From Owenia fusiformis (lineage: Eukaryota), in the NCBI GenBank assembly GCA_903813345.2, contig CAIIXF020000001.1, positions 7,192,001 to 7,256,000 on the forward strand: DNA of 64,000 bases, given 5' to 3'. The notes beneath the pieces are model-generated. The model saw only the letters and a list, made by a program, of their open reading frames with translations, was not told the DNA's origin and searched no databases. Of the stretch, positions 1,331-31,200 are shown one piece after another. Within the stretch, counting starts at the first letter, position 1, and every line of letters begins with the position of its first letter. Made by a program: the position numbers and the translations under genes.

Positions 1331-4300
1331 ATGGCTGATACTCAGATAAAGACAGAGGCTTCATTGGAGGTGATCAACTTGACCAAGAACAATAGTGGCA
1401 TGGATTTAAGCAAGACATCGAATATCACATCTAAGTCCTTAAGTCCATCACATATACAAATGCTTCAACAGCAAGCAAATCCGACAATTTTGTCAATCCC
1501 TGCGCCATTCCAGCAGGCAGCCTACCAGTATACATTCCTCAATCAGGGGGGACTAGCGGGAGTTATGACCCCTGTGAACCTTAATACTACTGCCAAGAAG
1601 GGGAGCGAGGCCCCACAGGTCTTGGACCTCTCGAAGGGGTCCTCAAGTAATCAGAGTTCTGACAGTGAGATTCCATATGATGCAAGGTCCAGATCAAAGC
1701 TGAAAGGACTGGACCCTACCTTTTTAGATAATCAGGCCATGACGCAAGATCTCCTTAATTCTCTTACCCCAGAGGATGCCGAAAATTTGAAGAAACCCCG
1801 TCATGCTGGTAAGTAGAGCTAGTTTAACAAACTAATTAAAATTTTTGAATTTAGAATTTTAGAATAAATTCAGAAATATATTATAATACTTTTTCCTTAT
1901 AGATTACAAATTTAATTACGGTCTTTGTTGAACTCAGTTTGTAAATTTAAATTGAACGCCAGACAGCTATAATATTTCAGGTACAACCCAAAATGTATTT
2001 GATGTAAAATGAATTGAATCAGTTTACAGTTTTCTAAAGCTGACTGAATTTATTGAAAGCATCTTTTTAGCCTAAGCAACTAACTGTCTCGATTCAATAA
2101 GTTTGGGTAATTGCAAAAAAACTATATAGACGCCTTGATTCCCATGAATTGAGAACCGTGATGCAGTTTATACTTATGTGCTCTCAATAAAGTGATAGAA
2201 CTGCATGCGGGTTCCACCTGGCTTAACACAGGGGAAGTTCAGGATTCCAGTGAAAGGGAAATCGAATGTAAAAGTAAAAACTTTTTTTTCTTTTTATGTC
2301 CCAGCTCTAGGATACCAAGAGTGAAAGTTATTATAGTTTCCCTGGAAAACACTCTTTTTTCATTTTATATATTAGTACATACAGTATATACATTCAGGGT
2401 ATAAATCAATATTTGCATTTTCATAGGGGCATCAAAACAATTATATAAAATTCATTGGAGGGGTTTTATATTCATTCCTAATTAAGATTAACAAACTTAT
2501 TAAAATCATTTTTTACATACATGTTCACCTAAATTCTTCATTCTAGGTAGGTTCCAATGTCAAACAAGTGTCCTTAAATGTATCATTTTGGGTTAACTTT
2601 TATTGAAGAAGACAAGAGAGAGATTTTATGATGAGTTTAAATGATCAGATGTTGAATCTTAGTCAGTGATCATTGGTTGATTCAATGAGCCTGAGCATAA
2701 ACCACTACTGAAATTTCAGTTTATTCTCCAAATAATTGGATTTGGTTCACTGACTAGAATACCTTCTGGCTTGGTTTTATTACCTTCCCCATCATTAATA
2801 TGAATTGAGGAATAAAGCGGGAAAGTGTGTGCATCTTCACGGTATGATTTCACTATTGAAATCACTTTATTAACCCAGTTCAATTTCAGCGTTAGTAGTA
2901 GACCTTGTTTCCCCTTCAATTAGCTCTTCAAATTGACATTATTAAAACTTGTTATAAATAAATGTGTTATGAATATGGAGTTTAGTGATATAAACAAATC
3001 ATTCATTGTCTGTTAACCGTGACTACCATTGCAACACATTTCTATGGTTGTCAACACCAGGTATATTAATAGGATCCAATTTCATTTATGTCTCGTAGCT
3101 TGCAATTCAAGTTGAGTTCTAATAGTCCCAAAGGCTGTCAAGAGAGATACTGCATCTCCATACCATAGTTATCAGAACATGCAATATCAAACATTTAATA
3201 TTGCCCCATGGTCTCTTGACTGTTTTGTGCTCTGGGGCTGCTTAGAATTTTAGAATCCTACGTAATGGTTCAATGAATTGATGTTCTTGTAATAGTGAAT
3301 GGTAGAACATGTTTATGTAAAAGTTGTTGGAAGTCATATTCCATGGATTGTCTTCTAAGTCACTGAACCAAACATTGTGGGTTGCAAAGACTCTGCTATT
3401 CCTGAACTAGATTAGACAAGGCACTCTGAACCAGAGATAAATACATGTAGAGTCTGAACCATGGATTACCTTTTAAAGTCACCAAACCAATGATTTGTCT
3501 TTATGTTTATAAATTATGATCTTACATTAGCTCATTAGCTTAAAATAATTAATAATTAGGACTTGATAAATCACTAGTTCTCATGTGATTTAGGTTTATC
3601 TGGGTTATGATGGGCATATTATATATTTTAAATGTATATTATAAATTTTCCCACAGGTATAACATATGAAATGTGAAATAGTGTTCCGCTAAATGAATTC
3701 ATGATTTGGTGCCAGTTTACTATGAACTGAATTTGAGTAATTATGGAACCTATGAATTTAAAGTAGAAAAAAATCAGATTCCTCTTCAAATTTATCATGT
3801 GTGAATATCTAACATACTAGGCCATGTAGTATGCTTTTACATGTCACAAAATATTTTTTATAATGATGATTTAATAAATATACCACTTTTTATGAACTAA
3901 CTTGTGAAAGTCATTCGTTCTTTTCTTAATTAGTAGTGTCAGCAGCCTACCTGTATTCTGAGGCGGGCATTGAATAATTTTCAACTCGTGTGTCATTTGT
4001 TGGAATTTGTAAAGAAGAAAGCAAATTGGTTAAATGAGATGTTTTTCTATATAAAGCTGTCAATGACCATAGCACTTTATATTGTTAAACAAAACATCTG
4101 GTCTTTAAACCGACAATGGTATATTACAGCTACTAATTGTACCATGTATTGATAAACGAACTCATATATTTCCTATGAATCTAATATTTCTGAATGCTAA
4201 ACCCAATTGGAATTAGTGTTAGAGGATCTATGGGATTGAGGCAGTTAGAAATCAATGAGGTGCAACCACAGATGGTTGAGTTGAATGTTAGGACAGAATA

Positions 4301-7300: not shown

Positions 7301-10300
7301 TAGTAATCAATGCATTGAGTACTGTCATTTGATCACATTTAATCAGCTATCAAATTGCAGACAATGTAATGATTAATATAAATCAAAGAAGAATTTTTAT
7401 GATGACAATTCTCATATTTGCTGAGCCATTTTTTGTATAATATGCCATGATGAATTATGTCTTCATCTCCAATATAGTTGAGTATTTCTTTGAATTTTTA
7501 AGGTAATTAATTTCCTTAAGGATAACATTAACCTTTTTCATTGACCTTAGAATTTAAGTTTCCCGAGATACAGTGTACCTTTATCATTATTATCATTATT
7601 ATAAGGTCACCTGGGTAATAAAGAGCAAGTTTACTTTCAATCTGAGGTGAATTTAGAAATAAATAAATACATTTACCCAATCGTAGAAACTGTATAATCA
7701 TGATAATTTATGGTTGATGAACAGGAATGACCCTCATCTGAACTTAAATTTGCTCAGTCACTTACTCTGATACCAAAATAGTCCTTATTAAAAAGTCTCA
7801 TAACTGCTTTATAACTTGCACTATCAATAGACTTTGCTTCAAATTTTCAGTATTCTTTGCAAATTGCAAGCTACTTAGATTTTAAAAATGGGGCATCATA
7901 GGGGTAATAAGGAACTATGTCGAGAACTATGTGAGATGAAGCTTTTCAAATCATAGCTTGAGAAGTTTGAGATTTTAAGTAATAATGTACTTAAGAAATG
8001 CATATTTTAATTAAGACTCACCAATGAAAAGTAAAATGTGAAAATGAGATATTTTAATATTTAATTGGATGTTTTTGGCAGGTTTGATACCAATTGTTCT
8101 CATCCCTTACAAAAGTTAAAAAAATTATTTATTCACATTCCTTGCAAAATGTACCAGAAAATATTTCTATTCTTAATACCCTGCAGAAAACAAAACTATG
8201 TAGCCTCTTTAACAAGTATATCATATTTTAAAATGAGCATAACAATCATTAATAATATTTTAATCCCAAAACACAAACATTCCATCATTAACTGTGAACA
8301 TTGTATCAAACAGATCATTCACTTAGAGAAAACATGTACGCTATGCTGCACTGTACTGTACTACACTGTACTGTACTGTGCTGTACTGTACTGTACTGTA
8401 CTGTACTGTACTGTACTGTACTATACTGTACTTTGGGTACAAAGGGCCTGGATGCAATACTCTCACTTCACTGCTTACAAGGAAGAAATCACATGGTTGA
8501 TTGGAAAATAATATTTACACCATAGATTAAGTCTTAAGTTACGAATGAAACATTTTCTTTATTAACAGTGTGTACCCACTCATTTATTGACTCAAAGCAT
8601 TTTGTATTGAATTAGTCTTAAGTCCCTGTTTTCACTTGAATGGTTCTTCATGGAACCGAAATGTCAAGCAAAGAGATTGTACGCAACAATGATCCTGTAA
8701 CGTTTCAAAGAATGATATTGGTTTTGTAATTTTGTTTTATTAACCAACCTAGTGGAGCATACTTTATGGTTGGCTGATTGAACCATTCCATTGAATCCAT
8801 TAATGTAATTAACATAATTTATTCACAGTTTATATGCTTTATTGATTATAACATTATTCAGTCCTAGCTTGGTTAATTTCTATAGTTAGCTTTCTGCATG
8901 ATTGGTTAGTATCTCAGAAACACCTGGTCTCCAGTCATTGTGTACAACACATGCTTAGAAAATGATTGGCAATCCAATATCAGTGTAGTGTATGCATAGG
9001 GCCACAATTATACAGGGTACAGTGTACACAGTGTAGCCTAGTCATACACAGCGAGCTCAGCCACTCAGCTTTAACTATATACCATAAAGAGGCTGACTCA
9101 TATTGGGAATCACTAGAGCCACATATACACACACACACTTAGGATATATAACATCATTTCTATGGTTCTGCTTCGTTGAGGTACCTTTATGACAATGGCA
9201 GTGAATCAGACATTAGGTTCAGAAAGAAGCGTATTTGTAATACAGTTAGCACCTCAGAAAACAGTTAATATCAACACTGGAGAGAAAAGTAAAACACAGA
9301 TTAAAATTGAGCCACATTTCAGGCCAATAGCACCTAAGGATCCAAATACTATAAACGAGGATGATGGAGATGATCCTCCTTTATTAGGAAGTAAGTATAT
9401 GATTAATACAAGTCCAGGTGATCATATGTTACAAAGTTGTGTAAGATATTGTAAGGTTAGCATGGTTAAAAGTGCAGTTTTAGCGATCTTTTCTGAGCTG
9501 ACTTCATCACATTTTGTATATCAGACTGACCTACATTACATGGAGATACTGCAGTGTTAAACTCAAGGGTTGTTAGTAATACATTAACAAGTGATGTTTG
9601 TATTGAATTTAAAGCCTTGAAAGCCAATTCGTTGCTATATTTAACATACTGAATTGGTGAATGATTAATTCATATACTTTAATAATGTTAGCTCTAGCTT
9701 TGCTTGTTTATATAGGGAAGTGTGTTCATGGTTTATCAAGTCAACCATGTGTCATAGTCAAAAGTCCACTTGATTTAGTACTTGGAAGGAAATAAGCTTG
9801 TTGTCTAAGAAGTCTACATAGTCTACTGGTCTCTGCTATATATCACCATGTGCCTATTTCACTAATCTGATTCTGTTAAGCTGTCTGTTATTAGTGTTAA
9901 TAAAGAGATTAAAATTCAATTCATTAACTACATTTTGAAATATGAGATTGCTGAAACATGTAATAGCTGCCTGTTCTAAGCCGCCTGTTTTGTTAACTCT
10001 AATTCCAGTGTATAACTAACTGTTTAATATGAGACAGTGTTAACATGTAAGGATGGACTTCCTCATTTAAGTAGAAGGTGCAATATTATCTTTATTTTCT
10101 GTGAAATGTTTATTGTTAATGAATTATATTGCCATCTATATTCAAGATATAGCAATCATCCATGAATTTTTCATGATGAATTGGGAATATCTAAACAATT
10201 ATATTAGAAATTCTCCATTTTGCATGGGCTTTCGAGTCTGTTGATTTTTGGAAACAGTAGAAAATAAAGTCAGGATTTAGCTCATTGATTGAAATTATAT

Positions 10301-13300
10301 TTTAAGTAAAATTATATAATGCCAGCTTTGTCACATAATTATCTCCAAAATGTATAAGAGTGTGATATTTCAATTCGCATATGGGTTTATCAGTTATGCC
10401 TTGGTCACAATTGCTCCGATTTTCACTACAGCGCCTGGCCGATTGAGTAATTAGTTGTTCAAAATTGAATACAATATTGAACAAAACACTCTATCGGCAG
10501 GGTGCCGGCCGTTGGATCGGAGCAAATGTGACCCAGGTATTACTAGTAAATATCATTAATTTGCATTGTGATATCAGATCTTTTATTGTACTAATAATGG
10601 CATAAACATCAGATCGTGCATCATAGGGCTTGGCTTACCACAAATATGTTAAGGTAAAAGAAAAACAGGATGCAATGATGCATGAATATATTGACTTTTG
10701 CTTCTTGGAACCACCTCTGTGTTATATCATATTGATTTATTGCTAACAATGTATAAGTATTCACTGTGACTCTGTAATGTGTTGAGCATTACCAATTGAT
10801 TTTGTCTTGGATGTGCACTCATATAGAACTGATATATTAGTAGCCATTATTAACTGACTTATATAAATAGAATAACTGTCACGGCAACATAATCAATTAA
10901 ATGATGCTTGGTAATATTCATGAAATGTCAGCGCCAGTGACATTTATTTGTTATTGTGATGTCATGCCTAAATGGATCATATCTAGATTCTGTCTACACT
11001 GAAAGTTGAATTACGGTGACAGTTTTTGGAAATCAAATTTTTGGTTTAATTGATTTAAAATATTAATAGCCATTTATCGATATTAAGGCTATCAAAGGTT
11101 ATAAGAGTGCAATTAAAGTATTGGGTGAAGCATTTTCTTTTAAGTTAAAGCCTGGGTTAAACATATTTGATATCTAAAAGGGCTTATGAGTCAATCATTA
11201 CATTGAGCATCAATCCACTGTTTGTTTCCCGTTGCATTCTCTGTCAAACTTGTATTGGGGAAAGAATGCCTGAGACAAGGGTATAGGCTGTTGGGGAACA
11301 CTTTATGCGAGTTACATCCAAACATTCCATTATATAGCCCAACAATCTATTAGCTCTAACCCTGCCTTATTGTGTTTCCAGGTGGGAAAAATGTCAACCA
11401 GTATGGCCGACTTTTCACCAATGGACGCCCTCTGCCAGAACATTTACGTGTGGAGATTCTGCAGTTGGCCCTTCAGGGAATCCGCCCTTGTGAAATAAGC
11501 CGCCAGTTGCAGGTCTCTCATGGCTGTGTCAGCAAAATATTGAACAGGTATGAAAATCAATGGGTTAAGAACATCCAGTATTTTATTATATACATGTACA
11601 TATATGTATGATCATCATAGCTCATATATGAACATATACTTTGAGTATTAGAGCTTTAAAGCATACTCCGATGAATGGTTCTTTAACAGATTTATTACTG
11701 CAGTCATTTTGACAAAAGGAAGTACATATTTACTTCTTTCAGGCTATTCCATGAAAGAAAATTCAAAACCCTATGGATGTTTTTAGTGCTAATGCGCGTT
11801 AATTGAAAACAGGTTACTGTCTTGGTGTAATAATGAAATAAACATTTTATTGTTTTGATGTGTTAATTATAAAGTTATTGTCTGACTTTGTTATTCTCTT
11901 GATATTCTTGGACCCCACCCTGTCGTTATTGTTCACTTTATGTGTTTATCAGGTATCGGCGTACAGGTAGCATTAACCCTGGTCAGATAGGAGGTAGCAA
12001 ACCAAAGGTCACCACCCCTGATGTTGTGGCAAGAGTCAATCAATACAAACTGGCTAACCCCCAAATGTTCGCCTGGGAGATTCGGCAGAAGTAAGTCTCC
12101 CTCAGTCTGTACATCTTTATCTTCTTTATAAAAGTTTTGAAGCTCATATTGAAGCGAAATATTTCCAGCAGTTTTGTTAAAGGCCCTGTCTGAAGTTGTT
12201 TTTTTAAACACTATTGCTCAGCTTTGACATAAATATTTTTATTTATATGTAATGTTTATTTACATATCCTATCACTGCTCCATATTTTGTTAGCAGTAGA
12301 AGAGACTCATGAATCCTTTATTCAAATTGATAATAACGGCCAAACTTCGCCCCTCAAAAGTGGTGAAACCCTAATACCTATAAGTAATCTTGAGAGTGAT
12401 TTGTCTCTTCAGGTGCTTTATAAAATCTGACTCAAAGGCAAACACATCTATTTTGATGTATATGTTGAACTAGACTGATGTGAAATTATTTATTTCTTTG
12501 AGAAACATTAGACAAAACCTTTAAGAATTATTCAATGTGCAAAAGGAAGTTAATAATTTGATGACTGGATATGTGATAATGATACAGGTGCGTATATAGG
12601 GATCTGAGGCACCTACATATGTATACCCAATGACATCATTGGTGTTGTTCTCCACGACATTGCATAAAATAATGTTCAACCACCTTTTCATGTTTTCGTT
12701 GTTGTTAGCTCACATGGTGAGCTTTTGCAATCACTCACTTGTTTTTATATGTAATGTTATTTGTGCAAAGAACTAATCCACTTAAAGTGGCAGCAAAGAA
12801 TAGAGGGAGTAGAATTTTTTCTAAAAGCGTGGCAATGCTACCTTTACAATCTTAATTATGTTATTATCTGGAGAAAAGAAATGAGATACCTGATCAAAAT
12901 TGAAGATTAGGCAAATATATGGAAAAGGAGGCTAATTACAAATAACCCAAAATATCAAGAAATAAAGTCTAAACTGCTAGCCTGTTTAGAGACAATGTGA
13001 TAATTCTCCAGCTCCTCTCTAGTCTTTGTTACCCCTTTAAGTGCTCTGGTTCACAGGGCTGGTAAAGTCTCTTAAATAGAGATAACCCAGTTCTGTACAT
13101 GGCCCAATAGTTTGATTTTGCCGTGTTTGTTATGTGTCTTGCATTGGAGTGAATATTTTTGTTGATGTGAATTTAATGGCTTGATTTAATGTTTTGTGCT
13201 TTATTCTTAACCCTAGGCTTGTAGAGGATGGCTTTTGCATGGTAGATAACATCCCCAGCATAAGCAGCATCAACCGCATCCTCCGAGGTCCTTTACGATC

Positions 13301-16300
13301 GATGAAAGTAAGCGATATAGACACAGGCACCTGCACCCAACACATGTACCATACTAAACCCATTTAAACAATGTCTGAACTGATGTTGGAACAACTCAGT
13401 TCAAATTGCTAACAAATAATCATATCAACTTGTGAGGGATGTTTTCCAATGTTTAATGTTATGTTATAGTTATAAAAGGACTGATTAGTGTTAAATGTTG
13501 TTTTCCATACATGTACTGTTCTTTCAGTTACATGGAAGTTATTGATGTACATGTACATTACAAGAAGTTATTTTGAGAATGTTAAACCAGCTCCTTGTGC
13601 GATGTGCCTCTAAGAAATTATGTCCAGAAATACACCTGAAAACATTCTCATGTTAATTTCTCCCAGAATTAAAACCAATGGTCTGGCCCTAAATTTTATT
13701 TCAATATCAAAATGTGGTGATATTTATTTTGGAAAACACCCCTTTTCATATAGTTTCTAGTTGCAGAGTGCATAAAGGTGGCAAGCTAGGGGAACTAACA
13801 GATTCACTTTGTACAATAGTCTTAGTAAATCCATAGACTATCACCAGTATATGTAGCTAACCTGTACAGTGTATAATAATAACAGGTCATCCAGTCTTCA
13901 AACCATATTGCACATGTCATTGACATTATACAAAAAGAGAAGTATTGTATTATGTAAAGTGATTGAAAATTTATTTTTTCTCACATTTTACTTAATCATT
14001 GATTCCAAATTATGAATCTCTTTGATGTTGTGCTATTGTTATCCAAACAGTGAATGATCAACGATGTTGTTACATGTAGTTCACATTTAATTCTACTAAG
14101 TTTATAGACCTTAACCAATTTTTAACCAACAGGCAAAGATCTAACCAACAGGCAAAGATCTAACCAACAGGCAAAGATCTAACCAATAGGCAAAGATCTA
14201 ACCAACAGGCAAACCCCAAAAGATGCTTTTCACTGCATACCACTAGTGCTAACCACCATTAGATGTATACTAAAAAAATATAGCGATAGATGTCTAACCA
14301 TGCATATCTATTGTTTAGGTTGTTGGATGATGGCATTTGTAACGAACGTAGTATTCCAAGCATTAGTTCTATCAACCGTATCATTAGAGACAAGACTATC
14401 ATGGCTAGAAGGGGCCTATATGCAACAGAAGAGGTTTGTTAACTTCAAAATTCACTAAAGATTTCACAGAGAGTTGGAAAATAGCATCTTTATGTATGGT
14501 GCCCTCTTTAATTGGACTTCAATTCATTTTATGCTTAGAACTGCGCTGCCATCTATATAATAAAGATAATACATTTACTTTTATACAGTGGAGATCATTG
14601 TTTTGTAACTTCCCCTTATGTCTATTATAATTTATGTTCTAGTGTCAAAGAAGCAAAGGCTTGATAAGCCAGAATTGTCAATCACTTTCAAATGTTTAAC
14701 TGCTAATAAGTAAAAATTTTTGTGAAAGATTAGGCTATTCTTGAAAATCAATTTATTTAAAGAAGAAATATTTGTTCGAGATAGCATTTTAATTACTCAA
14801 CACCGATTACCAGTTTAATGGAAGTGGCCCAATGGTCAATAACCCAGATGCGAGTAGAAATAATCTTGATTTACGTCATTAAAAATTAAAAATTCAGTCA
14901 AAGTAATATCATATTTGAAATCTACATGTAAAACTACATCTAGAAATGTGGTTTTAAAAAGTGTTTATCAACTTTGAAAAATTAATTTTCTTTGAAAATG
15001 TGACTTCTAGCTCGGGGAGATTCCCCATAGACCCCATGCTATAAAATCACAAAAAATGAAATATCTTTTCTTTTAGTGGACAGATAATATTTTGCTTTAC
15101 TGGACATATTTTCATTAGTATAAGTATCAGACACATGAGGGTTATATGAAAATTGAGCCACTTAAATTGATAATATTCAAGTTTAAGGGAACTTTCTTAT
15201 ATACCTGCCATGTTAATTGACCCGAATCAGCCACCTGGTGGTGAAACTGGTAACTACTTACTCGCATTTGGGTAATTGAGAAATCATATTTAGGAAGTGA
15301 AAAATTTGTAAACATGAATCAGTTTGTTCATTCATCACTATTCAGGTAAATTTTATGAGTTGGGGGATAAAACAAAATGAAATGTCTACAACTGTTGATA
15401 TTTTGACACCATCCCTAATGGAGGTACTGTTTTGCTTGTTTCAGATGTTTGATGATCAAATCATTGAGAATGCTGCAATGAGTGCATCAATTATGGTCAA
15501 GACTGAGCTGGAAGATTACCAGAGTGACCAGAGCTTTGACAATGAGTCCTATACATCTGCTGAAGCTGACACCTCCACCAACGAGCACATGTCCATGACA
15601 GGCTTTATTAAGGTTGAACCTGAGGAGCAATCAAGCCAGGAAGCTAAAGGAGTTGAGAGGCCAGAGATCACACAGACGACTAGTAGGAGGTCACGCAAGA
15701 GTACACCGTATAAGATCTCCCTTGCAGAGAATAATGATGACGTGGCTAGTCCAAGTAAAGGAGCAACAGTTAATGGGGTTTCTCCAACTACACCCAGCCT
15801 TGTTTCTCCCAGTGTAAAAGCCAGTAGTATTGCACCTACAGTAAATGGTACTGACACCCCACGTACAAGTCAAGCAAGCCCACCATATAAATCACTGGCC
15901 ATCTCCACAGGCTCACCTACACCTCCAACGCAAGCAACCTTAAGCAGTGCATCTGCCTTGGCTGCCCAGATCAAAGCTGCCTCAGCGTCAAACATCGATC
16001 TCTCCAACACTCCTATGCAGCAGAAACAGATTCTGTTGCTCAATGGCCAGCAGTATGAAATTGTTCCCTTAGGCAACGGGATCTGGATCTCAAGGAATGA
16101 GTACATGTTGCTGCGGGAGCTACACACGGTCCAACAACAGATTGCTAACACATCCAACAAGGTGCAGAAGTTAGACAACGCCAAATCTAAATCAGCTCAA
16201 AATGATTCCAAACATAGTGAACAATTCACAAAGCTCAAAGAAAAGCCCATATTGCCACTAACTACTACAGAGCAGGCAAATAGGGCCAATAGTGTAGAAC

Positions 16301-17016
16301 AATTGAACCATCAAACTGTAACACAAAAACTTGCTAACAAACTGGCTGAGAAACTAGGCAGCCAGACCAACATTGCCAAGGCCACTGCTGACGAAACAAA
16401 CTCAGACACAGACAACTCAAACAAACGTAAAGCAGAAAACGACTCAACTGATGATGATGAACACAATGATAAACGTCAGAAAATCGCCAGTGAAAATGAG
16501 ACTATAAAGGATGAAACTGATGATGATGAAGAAAGTAATCTTGTGATAGCCGACCTTGCTGCTGAAAGTTCCCCTGCTGATTCCCCTCGGCTTATGAAGG
16601 CACTGCAGGGGGCTGCCACATACGAAGGTCTGAAGGCTTCCGATGCAAAATCTGAGCAAAGCCCAAAACAAGAAAATGATGTGGAAATGGAGAACAACGA
16701 AAACAATAATGATAAAACAGACACAACAATTGCAGTACCAGGAAAAGGTTAGTCTTAACTGATTTATGTAATGAGACTTCTGCAATGCATTTGATAATAG
16801 ATGTATCGATAAATTTAAATGAACCTTCCAAACAAGGGTTAAAACGGCATTATGAAAGGTTACCAATATAAAATATTAAATTGTTAGCAATTTTGACTAA
16901 AAATGTTTTTCATTTAGGATGTTTGGAATGGTTGTTGAGTTGTTTGGCACTTTCGGACTTTGTTCTAATATTCTGGATTTTGTTTACTTGCAGATTCTAG
17001 CGATGCTTCATCCTAG
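1331..17016 (+). CDS. Paxbeta: Paired-box transcription factor, Pax-beta-like, no recognisable homeodomain; ~740 aa main isoform. Exons: 1331-1808, 11382-11547, 11953-12090, 14319-14433 (or 13217-13307), 15445-16747, 16994-17016
   Basis: All junctions are GT/AG and phase-compatible (1,2,2,0,1). The spliced paired domain reads [127 protein letters not shown]. The [35 protein letters not shown] signature is what I recall for lophotrochozoan Pax-beta. There is an in-frame stop at 1313 upstream of ATG 1331. The last mini-exon (DSSDASS*) is less certain; read-through stops at 16752. Confidence 0.85.
5245..5258. promoter_or_regulatory. Palindromic RFX X-box (GTTGCCATGGTAAC) in Pax intron 1
   Basis: Exact match to the GTTRCCATGGYAAC consensus inside a locally GC-richer, non-repetitive block (~5170-5640). 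Function is inferred only. Confidence 0.35.
8349..8432. repeat. (ACTGT)n pentanucleotide microsatellite
   Basis: Directly visible run of ctgta units; it generates the spurious TVLYC ORFs. Confidence 0.95.
9189..9390 (+). CDS. Paxbeta: Alternative first (or cassette) coding exon of the Pax gene: MTMAVNQ...FRPIAPKDP...PPLLG
   Basis: Open frame ending in a perfect GTAAGT donor at 9391 in phase 1, the phase required by the paired-box exon at 11382. TATA-like sequence near 9075. A weak GAG acceptor at 9180 would instead give a symmetric 210-nt cassette exon. Confidence 0.6.
10393..10543. mobile_element. ~150-bp imperfect palindrome (MITE-like hairpin)
   Basis: ggtcacaattgctccgat pairs with atcggagcaaatgtgacc, gccgattgagt with actctatcggc, and ttgttcaaaattg with caatattgaacaa around a short loop. 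Confidence 0.6.
13217..13307 (+). CDS. Paxbeta: Pax duplicated exon 4a encoding the end of the RED subdomain: [30 protein letters not shown]
   Basis: TAG acceptor ending 13216, phase 2 in; GTAAGC donor at 13308, phase 0 out, or read-through to TAA at 13365-13367. Clearly paralogous to exon 14319-14433. Confidence 0.75.
14122..14213. repeat. 19-bp tandem repeat (CTAACCAACAGGCAAAGAT) x~4.8
   Basis: Units start at 14122, 14141, 14160, 14179 and 14198. Confidence 0.95.
14319..14433 (+). CDS. Paxbeta: Pax exon 4b encoding the end of the RED subdomain: [38 protein letters not shown]
   Basis: TTTAG acceptor ending 14318, phase 2 in; GT donor at 14434, phase 0 out, matching exon 15445. Contains the canonical paired-domain helix [11 protein letters not shown]. 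Confidence 0.85.
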
Positions 17017-22115: not shown

Positions 22116-22213
22116 ACATTTTACAGACATCTACCTCACATTAATTGATATTCTGAGCAAGTTTACAAGAGAAAGAATCATCCAATCAGGAAGTCGATCT
22201 GACCCAAGTTTCA

Positions 22214-25200
22214 TTATTGCGTGATAAACTGGGGCAGATACCCATAATCCATTGTATCAGGAGTCGTGATACTTTGACCTCCTGATTTCATTTGGCGTTG
22301 TTTTCTGCGTTCACACTTTGGGCAGTTTTTAGAATCTAGTTTACAGTCTTTGTGGAACACAGCTTTGCATTCTTTGCACTGAAATATGCAATCACATACA
22401 TTTATTTAGCTATGATAAATGTTATATTGCTAATTCTGTTGCTAATTGCCAATGTGCTAACTGTAGTCATGGTTAATTTAGTATTTCTAATATATTATTC
22501 TATAACCACCAAAATTCAACTTCACCTACCACAAAAGCTAGAACTTGTGACAAACATGCATGTGTTTCAAACCATATTTCCAATATGAAGTGTTACCAAT
22601 GAAGGGATGTTTAAACTAGAAAAACAGCAACTCCACAGAGTAGCAAATCCCACCGAACAAAACATGTTTTGAGAAATAGCGGCCATATAAAATTTGAACA
22701 AAATCCATCCACTGGTATTTGAGTAATCAAAGATTATGTTTTTTTATGAAACATGGTGGCCATTTTGAAATTCATCTGGCACCTTTAAAATTTCTTCTAA
22801 TAATTACAAGCAACATCTTACCTGTATGGTTATTTCCACTTCAAATGGGAAAATCACTTTAGGGGAATCACAAATCTCACAGAGGAATCCTTTCTGACTA
22901 CAAAGGGTGCAGTCATAGACATGTTTGCTGGCATATTTGATAATCTTCTTTAAACTCTGAGCAAGACCCCCATTCTGCACTTGAAGCAAATCCTGGAAAT
23001 AACAAGAAAACAACATATTTCAAAGGCTCTCACAATATCTGATTCAAGAGTTATCTTTGATAAAATGAATGAGTCTGAATCAGCGGAAGCCCTATTTAGA
23101 ATATTCATATGAACTCTTCCCCCATCCCCAAATATCCCCAGGCAGAGGTAATTAGACACAGGAAACACCATAATGACTTTAAGAGGCAAGGAGGGCATGC
23201 ATTACTTACAGCAAGAGAATACATGTGAATGTCGTTGTAAAGGTACTCCTTGGGCCAGACCCTCTTCCGTAGATCATCAGCTATAGACTGCTTGCAAGTG
23301 AATAAATATGACTTGAGAGAACTTAGTTGTGTTCTCAGCAACTGGAAATGAAAGTTGTAAAGAGAATACAGTAAAACCTGTAAAGTGGAACACCTTTGTA
23401 AATGGAACAATTTTCAAAGTCCTGTTATCCATCATTCTGATACTCAGACCACCTCTGGCAATGCACAAGGAAACTGAGAGAAGGCTGTGATATCTCGAGA
23501 TGGTTATCCATTAACTTAACGTAAAATGAACCTCTGTAAAAGAAACACCTCTGAACAAGTACTATCTAGTACCAAAGGTGTTCCACTGAAGAGATTTTAC
23601 TGAATTAAGAATGTACAGGAACACAAGAAAATTGAACTCATTCTAGAAATTATCAATGACGATGAATTTCAAATAGATTTGAAATATCTCTTGAAAACAC
23701 CTTTAGAAGACATCTTCCAGAAACAAAACTATAAATTGGCTAATTCTAATTCATTTTAATGCGCAACATATATTTATGATCACTATGAAAATGAGTATTA
23801 GACCAAAATAATAATAGAGAAAATGAATGTAACTTACTTTAATATCATTTAGTTCATTGACATGCTCATAAAGTTTAGGATTGCACTGTTGAATGTTGAT
23901 AAGAGGTTGCTCCTCAATCTCATGCAGGAAATCTTTGGTGAACTTACAAACTGCAAACAGAAACAAGGCATGAACATGTGAAATGTCACCACTTGCCATT
24001 TGTTACAGATGCTAAACGTCAATCACCAAATGCCACACCTTTCAACAAAAATCTGGAGACAATAACAATATATCTCCGCTTCTGGTGGTGACATAAAAAC
24101 TGCAGAGTAGGCCTTGATTTGGTACTGTTAAAGCTATCTAAGGGGAACACTGCTGATGAAAAAACGGTTTGCACCAAGAGGTTTTAATAGCTAGAGAGTA
24201 AATGTGAATACCTATGTTTAATTAGTCAACAGTGTATCTGGGCATTGTGTGTGTGGAGCTCAATAAATCATATCAAATTTCTTGCAAACATATAAAAGTT
24301 TTTGCAATACAAAATGAAATAAAATATTCAGTTGATGCATAATGATCTCAATGTCCTTTAAGTTTACATGCTATTTGTAATATATATATTGTAGAACCCT
24401 AGAGGGTTATAATGGTACTTGTACACTGTTACCTTCTAGGTTAAATAAAATGATTAAAAAAAAAAAATGTCCTTAAAAGTGCCTACCTTTATGTTTCCGT
24501 AGGTCCCAGTTCTGGACTATGCGTGAGGGGATTACATATTCATCATTTTCGTGGCATTCATAACAATAATAAGCACCATCATAAGAGCAAACTCTAGCGC
24601 GCCCATATACTGAAACACAATAATGTGTGGAGGAATCTAACTGGAAATGTCACAAAAACCATAAAGCCGGGAATTTTCTTTATTTAATTCAACTATTTTA
24701 ATTTATTTTTGATATTTCAATACTGTACTGTGAAAATACAAAATCAACTTGCTAACATGAAAGCAATATTGTCTTCGATATTTTAATAATGCAAAACTTA
24801 CTTATTCCTATTGGTCTACTGCAGCCCTTGCACTGGTAGTTCTGCTGGTCTAATCCTTTCTCATTACATATGTGGCCTATTACTTGAACCAGGGCCTGTG
24901 TTCGCTGGAACAAAACAATCTGAGAGATGATACACAATACAAGAAATGGAATGAAGTCTGCCATATACAGTACATTATACAACGGACATTGTTATAACAT
25001 AGAAACCATAATATACTGTATGCATTTATTACAATGTCCTGTGTCAAGCCCTTGAGACCCCTCTTCATACAGAGTGAGCCAAAAATGTAACCTAAACAAA
25101 TGTAAATAACTCAGTCACCCAGCATGGGTTTGAAATCATATTTGACAATTGAACCTTGTTCAAGTTTCATTGATTTATTCCCAGTAGTTAGGTCCAAGCT

Positions 25201-28200
25201 GGATGACTGAGTTATTCACATTTGTTTGGGTTAACTTTTTTGGATCACTCTGTACCTCACCAATATAGCAAAACCATGCAATTGTTGTAAAGAATTTGAT
25301 AATTTTCATCGTAATATCTGATGTGATATCGCATATACATATAATATATTATATATATTGAAAGGGTACATAGTTTTCTTTGTATAAGCATTTGAGTAAG
25401 CATTTTCAAAATGATATCTCAGCAATGCAATCATTAGCCATTTTAGCAACTCTCTTACAACTTTATTCTTCCCTTGAAATTTCTGCCACCCATTTGCAAA
25501 CCAGAAACGTAACTATTCAAGATTCGTTTTGCTCTTTATACTGGTATGTTTTTCATGTTAATCTGTTACTCCACAGTAAGTGGAAACCAGTCACTTTATA
25601 CTTGAATCACTCCTGATGGTTATGGTAGCTGTTAGTGAATCAGCAATTCAATAAATTGATGGTACATCTGATTGACTGATTGACTGATTTCACTATTTTA
25701 AATGTGGGGTTAAACTAATTCTAAAATACTATTTAGAACCTATTGTGGGCGCCATTTTTGATTTTTAAAAGTTCTTGTAAGATTTTAAGATGGCCATCAC
25801 AACAGCCCTAGCTAATATCTAACATGGTGAGTACCGAGTACAGGAGAAAATACATAAAATCAAACATAAGTTTGTATGAACACTTCAAATTTTCTGGAAT
25901 CTGTTGAAAAATCATAAAACACATCATAGTCATATACATGTAAATTCTTTCTCTTGATATATATGTTTACTATGTAGGAAATAATTTTCTCCTATACTGA
26001 TAAAGATGTTTTATTTGGGCCGCCATTTTGAAAGAAGGTAGGTCAATATAACATTTTCATTCAATAATTTGAACCATCACAGCTCCAATATTGTATTAAA
26101 AATAGCAATTAGCGTGTTTAAGATATAGCAGCATTAAAACAATTGGACTAAGCTTCCCTTCAAGAATATTTTCATTATAAAGGTAAAATCTATTACAGAG
26201 TGGTGATTAAATTGCAAGCAATGAATTAACCAATGTGATCTTAAAAATATTTAAACATGATCAACATTATCTTATACAACAGAAAAGTTACTAAAGATTT
26301 CATGATTCAAAATTAATGTCAAAACTCAAAATATTAATATGGTGCACCAAAATAGATACATGAAAACAATATGTTAAAATAAAATTAAACCAAGAACTAG
26401 CCTTGCCCAAGTCGGTCTCTTTTACTTATCTTGTTTCTATTATGACCGCCGGTAATAATTCAAGATCAGATAAGTAAAAAATACCGACTTGGGCAAGGCT
26501 AACCAAGAACCAGCAGTTATAATAACACAAATCAAACTTTATCAACAGCACACAAGCACATTTTACAAACACTGCAAAATGCAAACTATTGTAGAAAAAT
26601 AAACAAATGGGATGCCCAGGAAACATGCATTCAGCCTTATCCATGCACGCATTGAACCAATGACTGCTATCTAAAATGGGCTACAGGTATGTAGTAAACA
26701 CATGCTTTGGTATTTTCGATGTTATTAAATAGGTTTATCAATTTTCCTTTTTGTGCAAGATTTCAGTCATCCCAGAGCCAAGTTTCCTGGGTTTGGCTAG
26801 ACTCGCCTCAATGCCCTTGAATGGACAATTAGTGACGAATCAGCCAGGAAGAAAAACACGACGAGGCAAAAAATATTTCCAAACCTTGCAACGCTTGCCT
26901 GGCAATAGAACACAATGATAACCCTTACATAATGAGATTGTTCACAATTGAATCAAAAATTGACGATTTAAGATTAAACATCTATAAAAGTAGTTACAAT
27001 TAATTTACAACTCATCATTGCAGAGGAATATTTCCCGAAGGTTTTTAAAAAAGCGACATGGCAAGCGCCTTGTCTTCCTCATCCTGGCTACTCTCAACAC
27101 AATTGCCAGGTTACTTTAAAATTCATGGTAAAACACCCCTTGGCCCAGCAGCTGTATTACAAAAATTGAGGATTAATCTTATATAACATGGATTAACTAA
27201 ATACAGGTATAATGAGATACAGTAAGGGTTGGGAGGCTAAAGTAGTGTTGTAATAGAAAAGTACATGTTTATTGTCTAACCACAATGAGAGTATAGTGAT
27301 CACATAATGATCAAAAGCAAAGATAGGCTACGGTTCACATAACTGCATTTTGAATTTGAGCCTTTCTGGTTATCAAATGTAAAAGAAAGTAAGCCATATG
27401 AAGTTGTATGAAGAATGTACAGTAAACCCTATCTGAGTGGAACACATTTGGTACCTCTAAAAAAATTGGAGGTGTTCCACTTTTAGAGGTTCATTCAACA
27501 TTAAATGAGTTTGTCTTGGGTCTTGAGACTCTGAGGAGTGTTCCATTACAGAGGTGTAATACTTCTAGAGGTGTTCCACTCTATAGGTTTCACTGTAATT
27601 GCAAAACCAGATGGCAGAGAGGTGCAACTTACAGGGTCTGCAAATTCAGACATAGGGGAGCTTCCTACAGGGATAACTTCATAGTCGCTTGGTGTATCTA
27701 CCATGTCAGCACCACTCTAACAATCACAGCAAATCAATACACTGTATACCCAAGTAATAGACCAATTGCACTATTTTCTGATAATCACATGGGTCTTAAA
27801 GTACTTTATACTCTTATTTACTATATGGCTTTTTAAGGATTTTAAACTAGTTGTGCACAGAAATTTTCAAGGTCTCAAAGTGTGGGGGTACAGTGGGCGG
27901 TTGCAGAGTGGGGGCCTTGGTCAATAAGAGTCACAAAAGTGGTGTACTGAGCATTTAAACTGACAGGGACACAACAGGAGGTAATCAACTTTAAGAAATG
28001 CATATGTATTTGCAATAATCAAGCTTAGACTGGGATAGACATTTTATATTGACAGACATTTAAAAGTAACAAAGGCAAGGAAAGGATTCATTTATGTAAG
28101 ATCAATATATCCCTGAGGATATGTTAATTTCAATTGTCTTTGTGACTGAACTGTAGTATATGCGTGATGAACATGGTTAAAGATGAATGATTAACCAACA

Positions 28201-31200
28201 AACAAGACTACACGTCAACATTAATTTGTAAAATTTTAAGCTACAGAGGAACGAACACACTGGTATATAAGTTTTCAGAGTACAAAGCACACATGCTTGA
28301 ATTCTGGTTTCAGTTGAATACAGTAAAACCTTTCTAATCCAGACACAAATGGAACCAGCCAAAATATCTGAATTAGCATTTCATATTTCAAGGTTGTTTT
28401 CTTAAAATATGAGTTCATGGGAGATTACAAAAAAGGGACTGAGAATAAGTGTTCATATTGAGAGGTGTTTGGATTAAGAGAGGTGTTCGGATATACAGGT
28501 TTTACTGTGCAGTACATTACAAGGCCCGGGTCGTTAAATAAATATCAATTCGAATGCTTCCATTTTCATATCTATGAATCTAGTTGACATTTTTAGATAC
28601 GGTGGTTTATGAGACATAAGTCTGAAATATTCAGTATTAAAGAACTAGAACTAGTATGAGAGACACATGGATCAAAGATCACACAAAATACAATATTTCA
28701 CTTACTGGACTAGATTCCTCTGGGGTGTTGTCATCGAGAATGGGGTGCTGTTCGAGAATGTCAGACATTTTGGCAGAAGAAATAGTGCTGGCATCTGGTG
28801 TGTATTGGCTGAGAAGTGACCGGAAACTTTGAGCTGTTATAAAAAGGAAAGTTAGTTGGAAGAAAATAACAATGAAGTTAACTGATAGTGACAATATAAA
28901 GTCAAAAATTCCATAGATATTCTAAGATACTGGAGAAGTTCTTGGTAAAAACAGGCAGAAGTCTCGTACTAAGATGGTGGGATCAAATGTAATCAATGTA
29001 ATTGCCTTCAATGAGATTTTTTGAATGAAATATTGCGTTGATCAAATAATGATGCTTTGCTGTCTTGAAAACACAAAAAGCAAGAAGAATTGCTTCCTGA
29101 GGTTGCTGCAAAACGAACTTACCTTTAGGTTTTGTAGTTTGACTTTCAGTAGAATCATTTAGTTGGCTATCATTGGCATCTTGGTCACCATCAAACTGAG
29201 AGGACCAACCAGTCATCTGGCCGAGACCAAGGTTATTACCCAGACTTCCAGGTAATATTTCACTCTCTTTACCATCTTCTGAACTTCCCTTGTCATCTTG
29301 ATTTGATTCTTTTTCACGATTACTATCAGTGTCCGAAAAACTTTCACGTAATTTTGATGGAATTGTGACTGGTATTGTTTCAATAGTTGTTGCCATAGCA
29401 GTCGTTGTGACAGGATCCAGTGCTTCAGATTTTATCCTCTCTGACAGTATATCAGGTAGACCTATACCTATAGTTCCTTTTGCTGTTTTTGATGCATCTT
29501 CTTTACTTTCAGCCTCTGCTTTAGATTCAACAGGTTTATCATCCACAGCCTCTCCAGCTAGAACCTTCTCTTCAATCTTTTGTCTCTCCATCTTGAGGAA
29601 TTCCTCAATCGCAGCATCTTCTTCCCGTTTCTTCATCCTTGCTTCATATTTCTCAATTGGTTCCAACTCTGGTTCTATTTGGTCCTGTTGGAGCACATGA
29701 GACTCATCTATAGCCCTACCACGTACATTATCAGGGTCAGGGCATGAGATGGGACTTGCTCCAGAGCTCTCTGAGCCAGCCACAGCATTAACAGCCATTG
29801 CTAGCTTTCTCATGTCTTCAATGTCTTTACCTGTTAAAGCACCAGTTCCATATGGTGTATTAGGTGGAACCTTTGGTGTTGAAAAGTTGGATAGATTTTC
29901 AACAGTCAAAGGGGAACTTTCCACAGATGCAGTCTCAGTGTGATGTTTAGATGGCGCAACCCCGTGGCGGCCACTTCCAGAGCGGGATCGTGGCTTTGTG
30001 CTTCGTACATGTATAGGACTCGTATCCTCTGTGGGTATTTCAATGACAGGAGCAGGAGGGGGTGAGCAGGCCATGTCCGTGGCACTTGATACAGACACTG
30101 AATAAGTAAAAACACAAAATATGAACATTTTTATGACTTATATTTTACATAAAGTAGAATACCTAGCCTTGCCCAAGTCGGTATTTTATTTACTTATCTG
30201 ATCTTGAATTATCATAATAGAAATCAAGATAAGTAAAAGAGACCGACTTGGGCAAGGCTATAAAATACCTGTTGATGTGTAAAACAAAAAATATATAAAA
30301 TCTGGGCCTGTTGCTCCAGTTGCCGAGGATCCTAACATTCACTATCTTTATAAATGAAAATTTGAAACATCTAATTCCTCTTTCCCATTGAATAGCAAAG
30401 ATTTCCCACAAAACTAAAGCCTCAAATCATCCTACTGCCTCTGCCAGACCAAATAAAGACATGGCATGAAATGTTTTAGCTTCCAAAATGACCAGAAGGA
30501 TGTTGTAATTATTGAGCTAGCTACTTATATAATATGATGTTTAATATTTCCATGAATGTAGTTTGAATTTTATTGATTCACATTTGATATACAAAGCCAC
30601 ACTTGAATAGATCTATAGGCAAAAACTAATGGCTTCTATTTTAGCAAAGTGTATATCAGAGACCCTAAACCAAGCCAATATAGACATACTTATTTGTTTT
30701 TTTTTAAAAATACTGGAACGTCAATGGCTTCAGGTTTTGGTTATTTAATAAGGTTTCATTTAATTCAAATTTCTGTCAAAATTTAAGATAAAGTAAAACT
30801 TTCATCTCACGCTCACATCAATTCAATTAAAAAGTTTCAAAGTGTGTAAACAAATTCAAATTTATCCCAAACAAGTGGACCTGTACACTGTATAAATAAC
30901 AATAAAATATTGTCCACCAATGATTGTAAGTTCCACCGCCTCTACTATCCCTTAAAGGGGTATTCCTTGCCAGACCATCTCTCTCCTAATATGGTAGCTA
31001 TAACCATATACATACTTTGCAAGTTTATCAAAAAACAAAAAAATGTTTTGAAATGGTCAATATTGATCACTAAAAAATGTAGTGCTCAATTCCAGTAGGC
31101 TGCCATCTTTTAAAATTTCACTCAGGAAGTGACTCTCAACTTTGCATATAACATTAGGTAAGGAGCTATTAGAATTACTAAACCAGCTGAATATTTTTTC

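Follow-up and report, generated by a model that had tools for sequence, protein, structure and literature searches.

Development depends on Pax proteins as core regulators, and their DNA binding is known to be retuned by alternative splicing of the paired box. The closest described events, Pax6 exon 5a and the paired-box splicing of Pax2/5/8, alter the paired domain itself, and potentially its DNA binding, by means of cassette insertions, alternative splice sites and intron retention that fall mainly in the PAI subdomain; in the available sections of PMC4488758 mutually exclusive exons appear as a general category only, and substitution of homologous exons for helix 6 of the RED subdomain is not among the events given. 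Here we analyse a stretch of 64,000 nucleotides (nt) from the annelid Owenia fusiformis (GenBank assembly GCA_903813345.2, contig CAIIXF020000001.1, positions 7,192,001 to 7,256,000 of the forward strand; hereafter the window), in which the last paired-box exon of a Pax-beta gene is present in two copies, 4a and 4b, whose arrangement would permit just such a substitution.

Exons that were duplicated in tandem and are spliced in a mutually exclusive manner are in themselves a known phenomenon, exemplified by SNAP25 exon 5a/5b and by exon 5 of sodium channels. The Pax-beta pair resembles these systems in that the homologous exons are adjacent and of equal phase, the protein is conserved while the codons have diverged, and joint inclusion breaks the reading frame; it differs from them in that the use of 4a is something that we infer and in that the two exons are unequal in length by 24 nt. 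According to the accessible text of PMC9741552, human events of this kind are mostly ancient and strongly expressed, whereas the 4a duplicate was not found in the other taxa compared here. That unannotated duplicated exons exist is known from the part of PMC9013439 at hand.

Among lophotrochozoan Pax genes, the available portion of PMC5333810 reports two Pax-beta genes in the leech Helobdella, a similarly lineage-specific annelid diversification, albeit one in which whole genes rather than a single exon were duplicated. It also reports an oyster Pax6 with a variant RED subdomain, which results from an insertion in the annotated protein and not from a homologous alternative exon. No alternative exon in a Pax-beta gene is described in the portions of PMC5333810 and PMC5356317 at hand. 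The literature searched yielded no published example in which homologous exons replace each other within the DNA-binding domain of a Pax protein, nor one of mutually exclusive tandem duplicates inside the paired box; the present case, if true, would be the first.

Duplication of the last paired-box exon

The Pax gene lies on the + strand of the window, between approximately 1.3 kb and 16.8 kb. Its PAX domain is spread over three consecutive exons, and the final 23 positions of the Pfam profile (PF00292, positions 103–125) are present twice. Four sequencing runs were aligned to positions 11300–16800, three of which (X15, X18 and X10, from three studies) are transcriptome-like and one of which (X1) is DNA-like. 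The exons from the paired box onwards, together with one stop codon, are as follows.

11382..11547, + strand: paired-box exon 2 (PAI subdomain); Pfam PAX 77.4 bits; RNA contigs in X15, X18 and X10
11953..12090, + strand: paired-box exon 3 (linker, helix 4 and start of helix 5); Pfam PAX 68.5 bits, profile positions 56–101; RNA joints
13217..13307, + strand: exon 4a, which duplicates the last exon of the paired box; intact frame, AG acceptor, GTAAG donor
13365..13367, + strand: TAA that ends the frame if the 4a donor is unused; read from the sequence
14319..14433, + strand: exon 4b, the copy found in RNA and in the deposited protein (P0001); joints in X15, X18 and X10
15445..16747, + strand: large exon 5, a long tail without homeodomain and with a Pax-beta-type motif; open reading frame (ORF), Pfam, RNA, tblastn and motif scan

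The coordinates, frames and translations of 4a and 4b, as given in a preliminary description of this DNA, proved correct on rereading. The two exons, 91 and 115 nt long (the difference of 24 nt is a multiple of three), are spaced 1011 nt apart within the same intron span, with no exon in between. Both are preceded by AG and followed by GT, and both are entered in phase 2 and left in phase 0. Exon 3 ends in phase 2 (..CAG AA, then gtaagt), the G with which either exon begins completes its AA, and phase 0 suits exon 5 at 15445. Since each exon is 3n+1 nt long, using both or neither breaks the frame; as read from the sequence, inclusion of both shifts the frame and leads immediately to a TGA, and the earlier statements on acceptors, phases and frame shift are thus borne out. 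The description had also held that neither exon appears in the correct frame among the listed ORFs. This detail could not be reproduced: with a minimum length of 45 amino acids (aa), both are contained in frame, in the ORFs 13185..13367 and 14290..14442.

The splice sites read ttattcttaaccctag/G and AAA/gtaagc in 4a, and ctattgtttag/G and GAG/gtttgt in 4b; the acceptor tract and GTAAG donor of 4a match the consensus no less closely than do their 4b counterparts. Splice sites, reading frame and similar length reportedly serve as criteria for recognizing mutually exclusive exons (PMC3228551), and the present pair displays all three in addition to homology between neighbours. In a further departure from the SNAP25 and sodium-channel pairs, no convincing competing RNA pairing of the docking/selector type was found that would link the intron downstream of exon 3 to the sequences preceding 4a and 4b; inverted repeats near the two exons were considered as such elements and rejected, being short, AT-rich or misplaced.

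When aligned, 4a and 4b are identical at 15 of 23 residues and 44 of 69 nt. Both match positions 103–125 of the PAX profile, 4a with 22.1 bits and 4b with 20.4 bits; at the curated cut-off of 22 bits exons 2, 3 and 4a belong to the paired domain, exon 4b taken alone falling below it. Searches of the 64-kb window with four Pax proteins (tblastn) retrieved a single extra PAX-like piece, at 13188/13191–13286 (E 2.4e-5 to 1e-3), which is 4a, on the correct strand, in the correct intron and in the correct phase. On these sequence grounds, the similarity between 4a and 4b is not due to chance.

Signature of selection on the encoded protein

The first, second and third codon positions of 4a and 4b agree at 16, 18 and 10 of 23 codons, respectively, and the codons for PSISS differ between the exons exactly as had been quoted. 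By the Nei-Gojobori method there are 12 differences over 14.2 synonymous sites, which are saturated, and 13 over 54.8 non-synonymous sites. Because the synonymous sites are saturated, the copy is old. In a simulation of neutral decay, a copy of 4b was allowed to mutate free of selection, with 20,000 runs for each setting; an identity of at least 15 of 23 residues was retained in 5.5e-4 of the runs at the observed third-position divergence and in 1e-4 of the runs at the observed total divergence. The codon-position pattern and the simulations uphold the earlier proposal of an old duplication under purifying selection. Gene conversion was considered as a cause of the pattern and rejected, as it would make the synonymous sites alike too.

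The base composition of 4a is that of a coding exon, with a G+C content of 0.48 (0.57 at third codon positions), compared with 0.40–0.51 in the other coding exons and 0.33 in the flanking introns; its G+C content is reached by no other 91-nt window between 12091 and 14318. Run X1 covers introns, contains no spliced joints and shows many intron differences from the window, and hence represents DNA of another individual. Within it, no difference or indel was found at 13107–13369, the longest event-free stretch in the covered parts of the introns. Against the general PAX profile the 4a peptide performs no worse than 4b, and it retains N11, like the EKN of its relatives, where the worm's own 4b has S. 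Taken together, these observations indicate that during most of its history 4a served as translated coding sequence, with no sign of release from selection.

Predicted consequences for the paired domain

Alignment with the solved paired domains of Pax-8 and Pax5 places exon 4 at the extreme end of the domain. In terms of the Pax6 and Pax5 structures, this part spans the last portion of helix 5, the turn and helix 6, which acts as the recognition helix in the RED subdomain. A stretch of 10 residues is identical in 4a and 4b and is followed by L in the former and I in the latter. The exons differ at the end of helix 5 (LVEDGF in 4a versus LLDDGI in 4b), in the turn before helix 6 (MVDN versus NERS) and in the tail after R23, which is GPLRSMK in 4a and 15 residues long in 4b. 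IIRDK followed by a basic RR is present in every Pax-beta relative and absent from 4a, which has G-P instead; the latter should end the helix early. The preliminary description had announced a swap of the DNA-recognition end. The differences in helix 5 end, turn and tail stand, but the expression was too strong, since the two exons hardly differ in the core of the recognition helix; exchanging 4b for 4a would touch the flanks and tail of the recognition helix and leave its core nearly unchanged.

The interpretation that we favour, and hold to be moderately probable, is that 4a is a lineage-specific, selected exon that is used rarely or conditionally and is mutually exclusive with 4b. Exon 4 of Pax-beta would have been duplicated in tandem long ago, in the worm's own lineage; the downstream copy, 4b, would act as the standard exon, whereas the upstream copy, 4a, would have been retained by selection on the protein it encodes and would replace 4b rarely or under certain conditions. 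Exclusivity would be imposed by the reading frame alone, with both exons or neither leading to an early stop. In the resulting protein the core of helix 6 would be preserved; helix 5 would end differently, the turn leading to helix 6 would be altered, and the DK..RR tail conserved in all Pax-beta relatives would give way to a shorter tail containing G-P. That the gene produces two paired domains by way of these exclusive exons, and that the altered turn and shortened helix 6 tail of 4a change the binding of the RED subdomain or its strength, is a proposition to which we give about even credence.

Exon use in RNA and occurrence in other animals

One contig in each of the runs X15, X18 and X10 joins 11544>11950 (cut placed +3), 12090>14319 and 14431>15443 (cut placed +2), and all RNA joints are of the GT..AG type. 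The junctions 12090>14319 and 14433>15445 are accordingly present in all three transcriptome-like runs, and 4b is used; these are two of the four junctions for which a check had been proposed, the contigs holding none that covers 4a.

Several observations weigh against the use of 4a. Its RNA cover in the contigs of X15, X18 and X10 is zero (depth 0 over 13140–13323), and the deposited protein P0001 contains 4b and not 4a. As far as use of 4a is concerned, the earlier claim that one gene makes two paired domains is so far not supported, the RNA contigs and P0001 all being of the 4b form. The zero cover is weak evidence, because the contigs have a word depth of just 17–20 and rare variants are dropped from them; a minor isoform would escape, and contigs that hold only 4b are unable to show the absence of 4a. 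The invariance of 4a in X1 is not significant for the 91-nt exon alone, for which about 1.2–1.5 events would be expected. At the protein level, 4a differs from Pax-beta at positions that vary little or not at all within this subfamily (E9, K10, I22, D24, K25 and the RR tail).

The distribution of 4a points the same way, so that the conservation proposed as a check in lophotrochozoan Pax-beta loci did not materialize, and both copies were not found together in any related species among the sequences compared. None of the 85 homologues retrieved as matches to exon 3 has a 4a-type exon: the 4b type is found in 57 of them and a different PAX helix 6 in six, a further six stop at exon 3, and the remaining 16 are ORFs that read into an intron. 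Nor does the 4a type occur among 46 further members of ten clusters (31 of the 4b type and 15 fragments without the region), which include RefSeq isoforms X1–X4 from several molluscs and a nemertean. It is likewise missing from 32 Pax-beta loci in metagenomes; these encode about eight different exon-4 peptides, each locus has one exon-4 copy, of the 4b type, and in 20 of them both exon 3 and exon 4 are held with nothing 4a-like between. A phmmer search with 4a against 1.84 billion representatives gave a single match at E ≤ 1e-3, to a generic Pax1/9-like protein, this threshold being out of reach even for the worm's own 4b, which leaves the negative weak. With a 49-aa read-through query containing 4a, no longer protein was found in a set of 5.8 billion proteins, in a search of low sensitivity that returned two candidates, neither of them scored.

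One apparent 4a-like sequence (P0005, ...EIRQKLVEN...) was rejected, since it is an ORF that runs through the donor into a short intron and then into a frame-shifted exon of the 4b type. Separately, one metagenome contig (L002:1238-1633) has the Pax-beta paired-box exons 2, 3 and 4 contiguous and intronless, and is a processed copy, the product of an intron-poor species or a transcript-derived sequence.

Among the sequences compared, none of which comes from a close (oweniid) relative, the 4a duplicate looks specific to the lineage of this worm, a lineage that is long enough to fit the saturated synonymous sites.

The missing RNA cover in all three transcriptome-like runs, the omission of 4a from the deposited model and its absence from every relative compared would also be accounted for if 4a were a recently retired exon, a working alternative during most of its existence that has since dropped out of splicing without so far acquiring disabling changes. 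We consider this unlikely. It needs a very recent loss: the frame, the splice sites, the exon-like G+C content and the identity in the second haplotype are all intact, and the exon is free of damage in a genome where individuals differ in their introns roughly once per 60–80 nt. By this argument from rates, an exon both old and undamaged would, if released from selection, have died only very recently.

Another explanation, which we regard as improbable, is that 4a is an alternative last coding exon, whose donor is skipped or whose transcript ends in the intron, yielding a protein that consists of the paired domain only. The TAA placed at 13365 by the preliminary description is present (13365–13367), and the frame is open for 19 codons past the 4a donor up to this stop, so that the short paired-only read-through isoform proposed there is possible as judged from the reading frame. 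Selection at the protein level would be explained equally well, and paired-only short forms are reported for mollusc Pax6 in the available text of PMC5333810. However, the consensus GTAAG donor of 4a lies exactly in phase 0, as exon 5 needs, no canonical AATAAA was seen just downstream when the sequence was read, and the RNA contigs offer no support.

Still less probable, in our estimate, is a regulatory 'poison' exon, included alongside 4b so that the frame shift would direct the mRNA to decay and thereby tune Pax-beta levels: joint inclusion does give an immediate TGA, but such a role needs no conservation of the protein, and the synonymous excess and the match to the PAX profile argue for translation. 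That 4a is an inserted fragment of another Pax gene, or a chance resemblance, is very improbable indeed: its sole phmmer match is the Pax1/9-like protein, and ILR plus DN are reminiscent of other Pax classes, yet the homology lies on the same strand and sets in precisely where the phase-2 intron specific to Pax-beta follows EIRQK, 16 of 23 residues are shared with mollusc Pax-beta exon 4 as against 12 of 23 with Pax-8 (hand count), and the tblastn match within the window reaches E 2.4e-5.

Identity of the gene and other features of the locus

Exon 3 is 100% identical to the deposited O. fusiformis protein of 740 aa, P0001, its sole match at that level, and 83–91% identical to mollusc, annelid, nemertean and brachiopod proteins, compared with 69% to vertebrate Pax-8. 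Some of these relatives are labelled 'mucin-5AC' or 'Pax-2-A', names that the available text of PMC5333810 reports as misnomers for Pax-beta. The whole protein aligns with the solved paired domains of Pax-8, Pax5, Prd and Pax-6 (E 1.6e-50 to 2.2e-45). Pfam detected no homeodomain in the 435 aa encoded by exon 5; Pax-beta is described as lacking one in the part of PMC5356317 at hand. Navet et al. defined three molluscan Pax-beta motifs, namely YDY[NS]LPDRGL, PLDLS and a long C-terminal ...FGD..E.EI..VGK..W..RNE..L (PMC5333810, available portion). P0001 contains no exact match to any of these patterns; the long motif is present loosely, with its spacing kept, at residue 496 and in 29 of the 46 matches of at least 700 aa, and VLDLS occurs at residue 97, ahead of the paired domain. 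Judged by its sequence relationships, the gene is Pax-beta.

Two further exons lie upstream of the paired box.

1331..1810, + strand: first coding exon of the deposited protein model (MADTQIK...); tblastn with P0001 residues 1–160, 100% identity
9220..9390 (start position approximate), + strand: upstream exon joined to exon 2 in RNA and not in the deposited protein; the end of the X15 contig equals window 9361–9390

The X15 contig runs upstream from exon 2 into the exon ending at 9390 (exact match at 9361–9390), which is followed by a GTAAGT donor, and an in-frame ATG (MTMAVNQ...) is located upstream. The deposited protein, unlike this contig, joins the exon at 1331–1810 to exon 2. This probably reflects an alternative 5' exon or promoter, or else an incomplete gene model. 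At the other end of the gene, the deposited protein terminates in ...AVPGKDSSDASS, compared with ...AVPGKG* in the open frame of exon 5, and the RNA contigs depart from the window sequence at 16747; because of these two observations, a further short 3' exon is expected downstream of 16747.

The introns contain several repeats. An element of ~440 nt at 14837–15278, in the intron after 4b, has 21-nt terminal inverted repeats (14836–14856 and 15259–15279) that are 90% complementary. Extremely high word depths in each of the four runs show that it belongs to a repeat family, and it is absent from the haplotype of another individual, since an X1 contig joins 14837>15274; it looks like a polymorphic insertion resembling a miniature inverted-repeat transposable element. 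Intron 3 includes a high-copy segment, 12588–12771, with word depths from hundreds to 19,000 and many loose ends at 12705 and 12742, which is probably another short repeat family. A tandem repeat at 14123–14217, ~100 nt upstream of 4b, consists of about 4–5 copies of the 19-nt unit TAACCAACAGGCAAAGATC.

On the minus strand, long open frames at 22200–30140, for example 28983–30137 (384 aa, acidic and serine-rich), together with cysteine-rich pieces near 22214–23019, indicate a putative neighbouring gene.

Implications

Were 4a never used, it would be an unusually well-kept relic of minor interest. If it is used, a single gene would give rise to two RED subdomains by exon substitution, and the Pax-beta transcription factor would have been diversified without gene duplication. 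The annelid that carries the pair is a reference for comparisons of spiralian development, and its Pax-beta locus indicates that current gene models can miss duplicate exons that are selected but unannotated.

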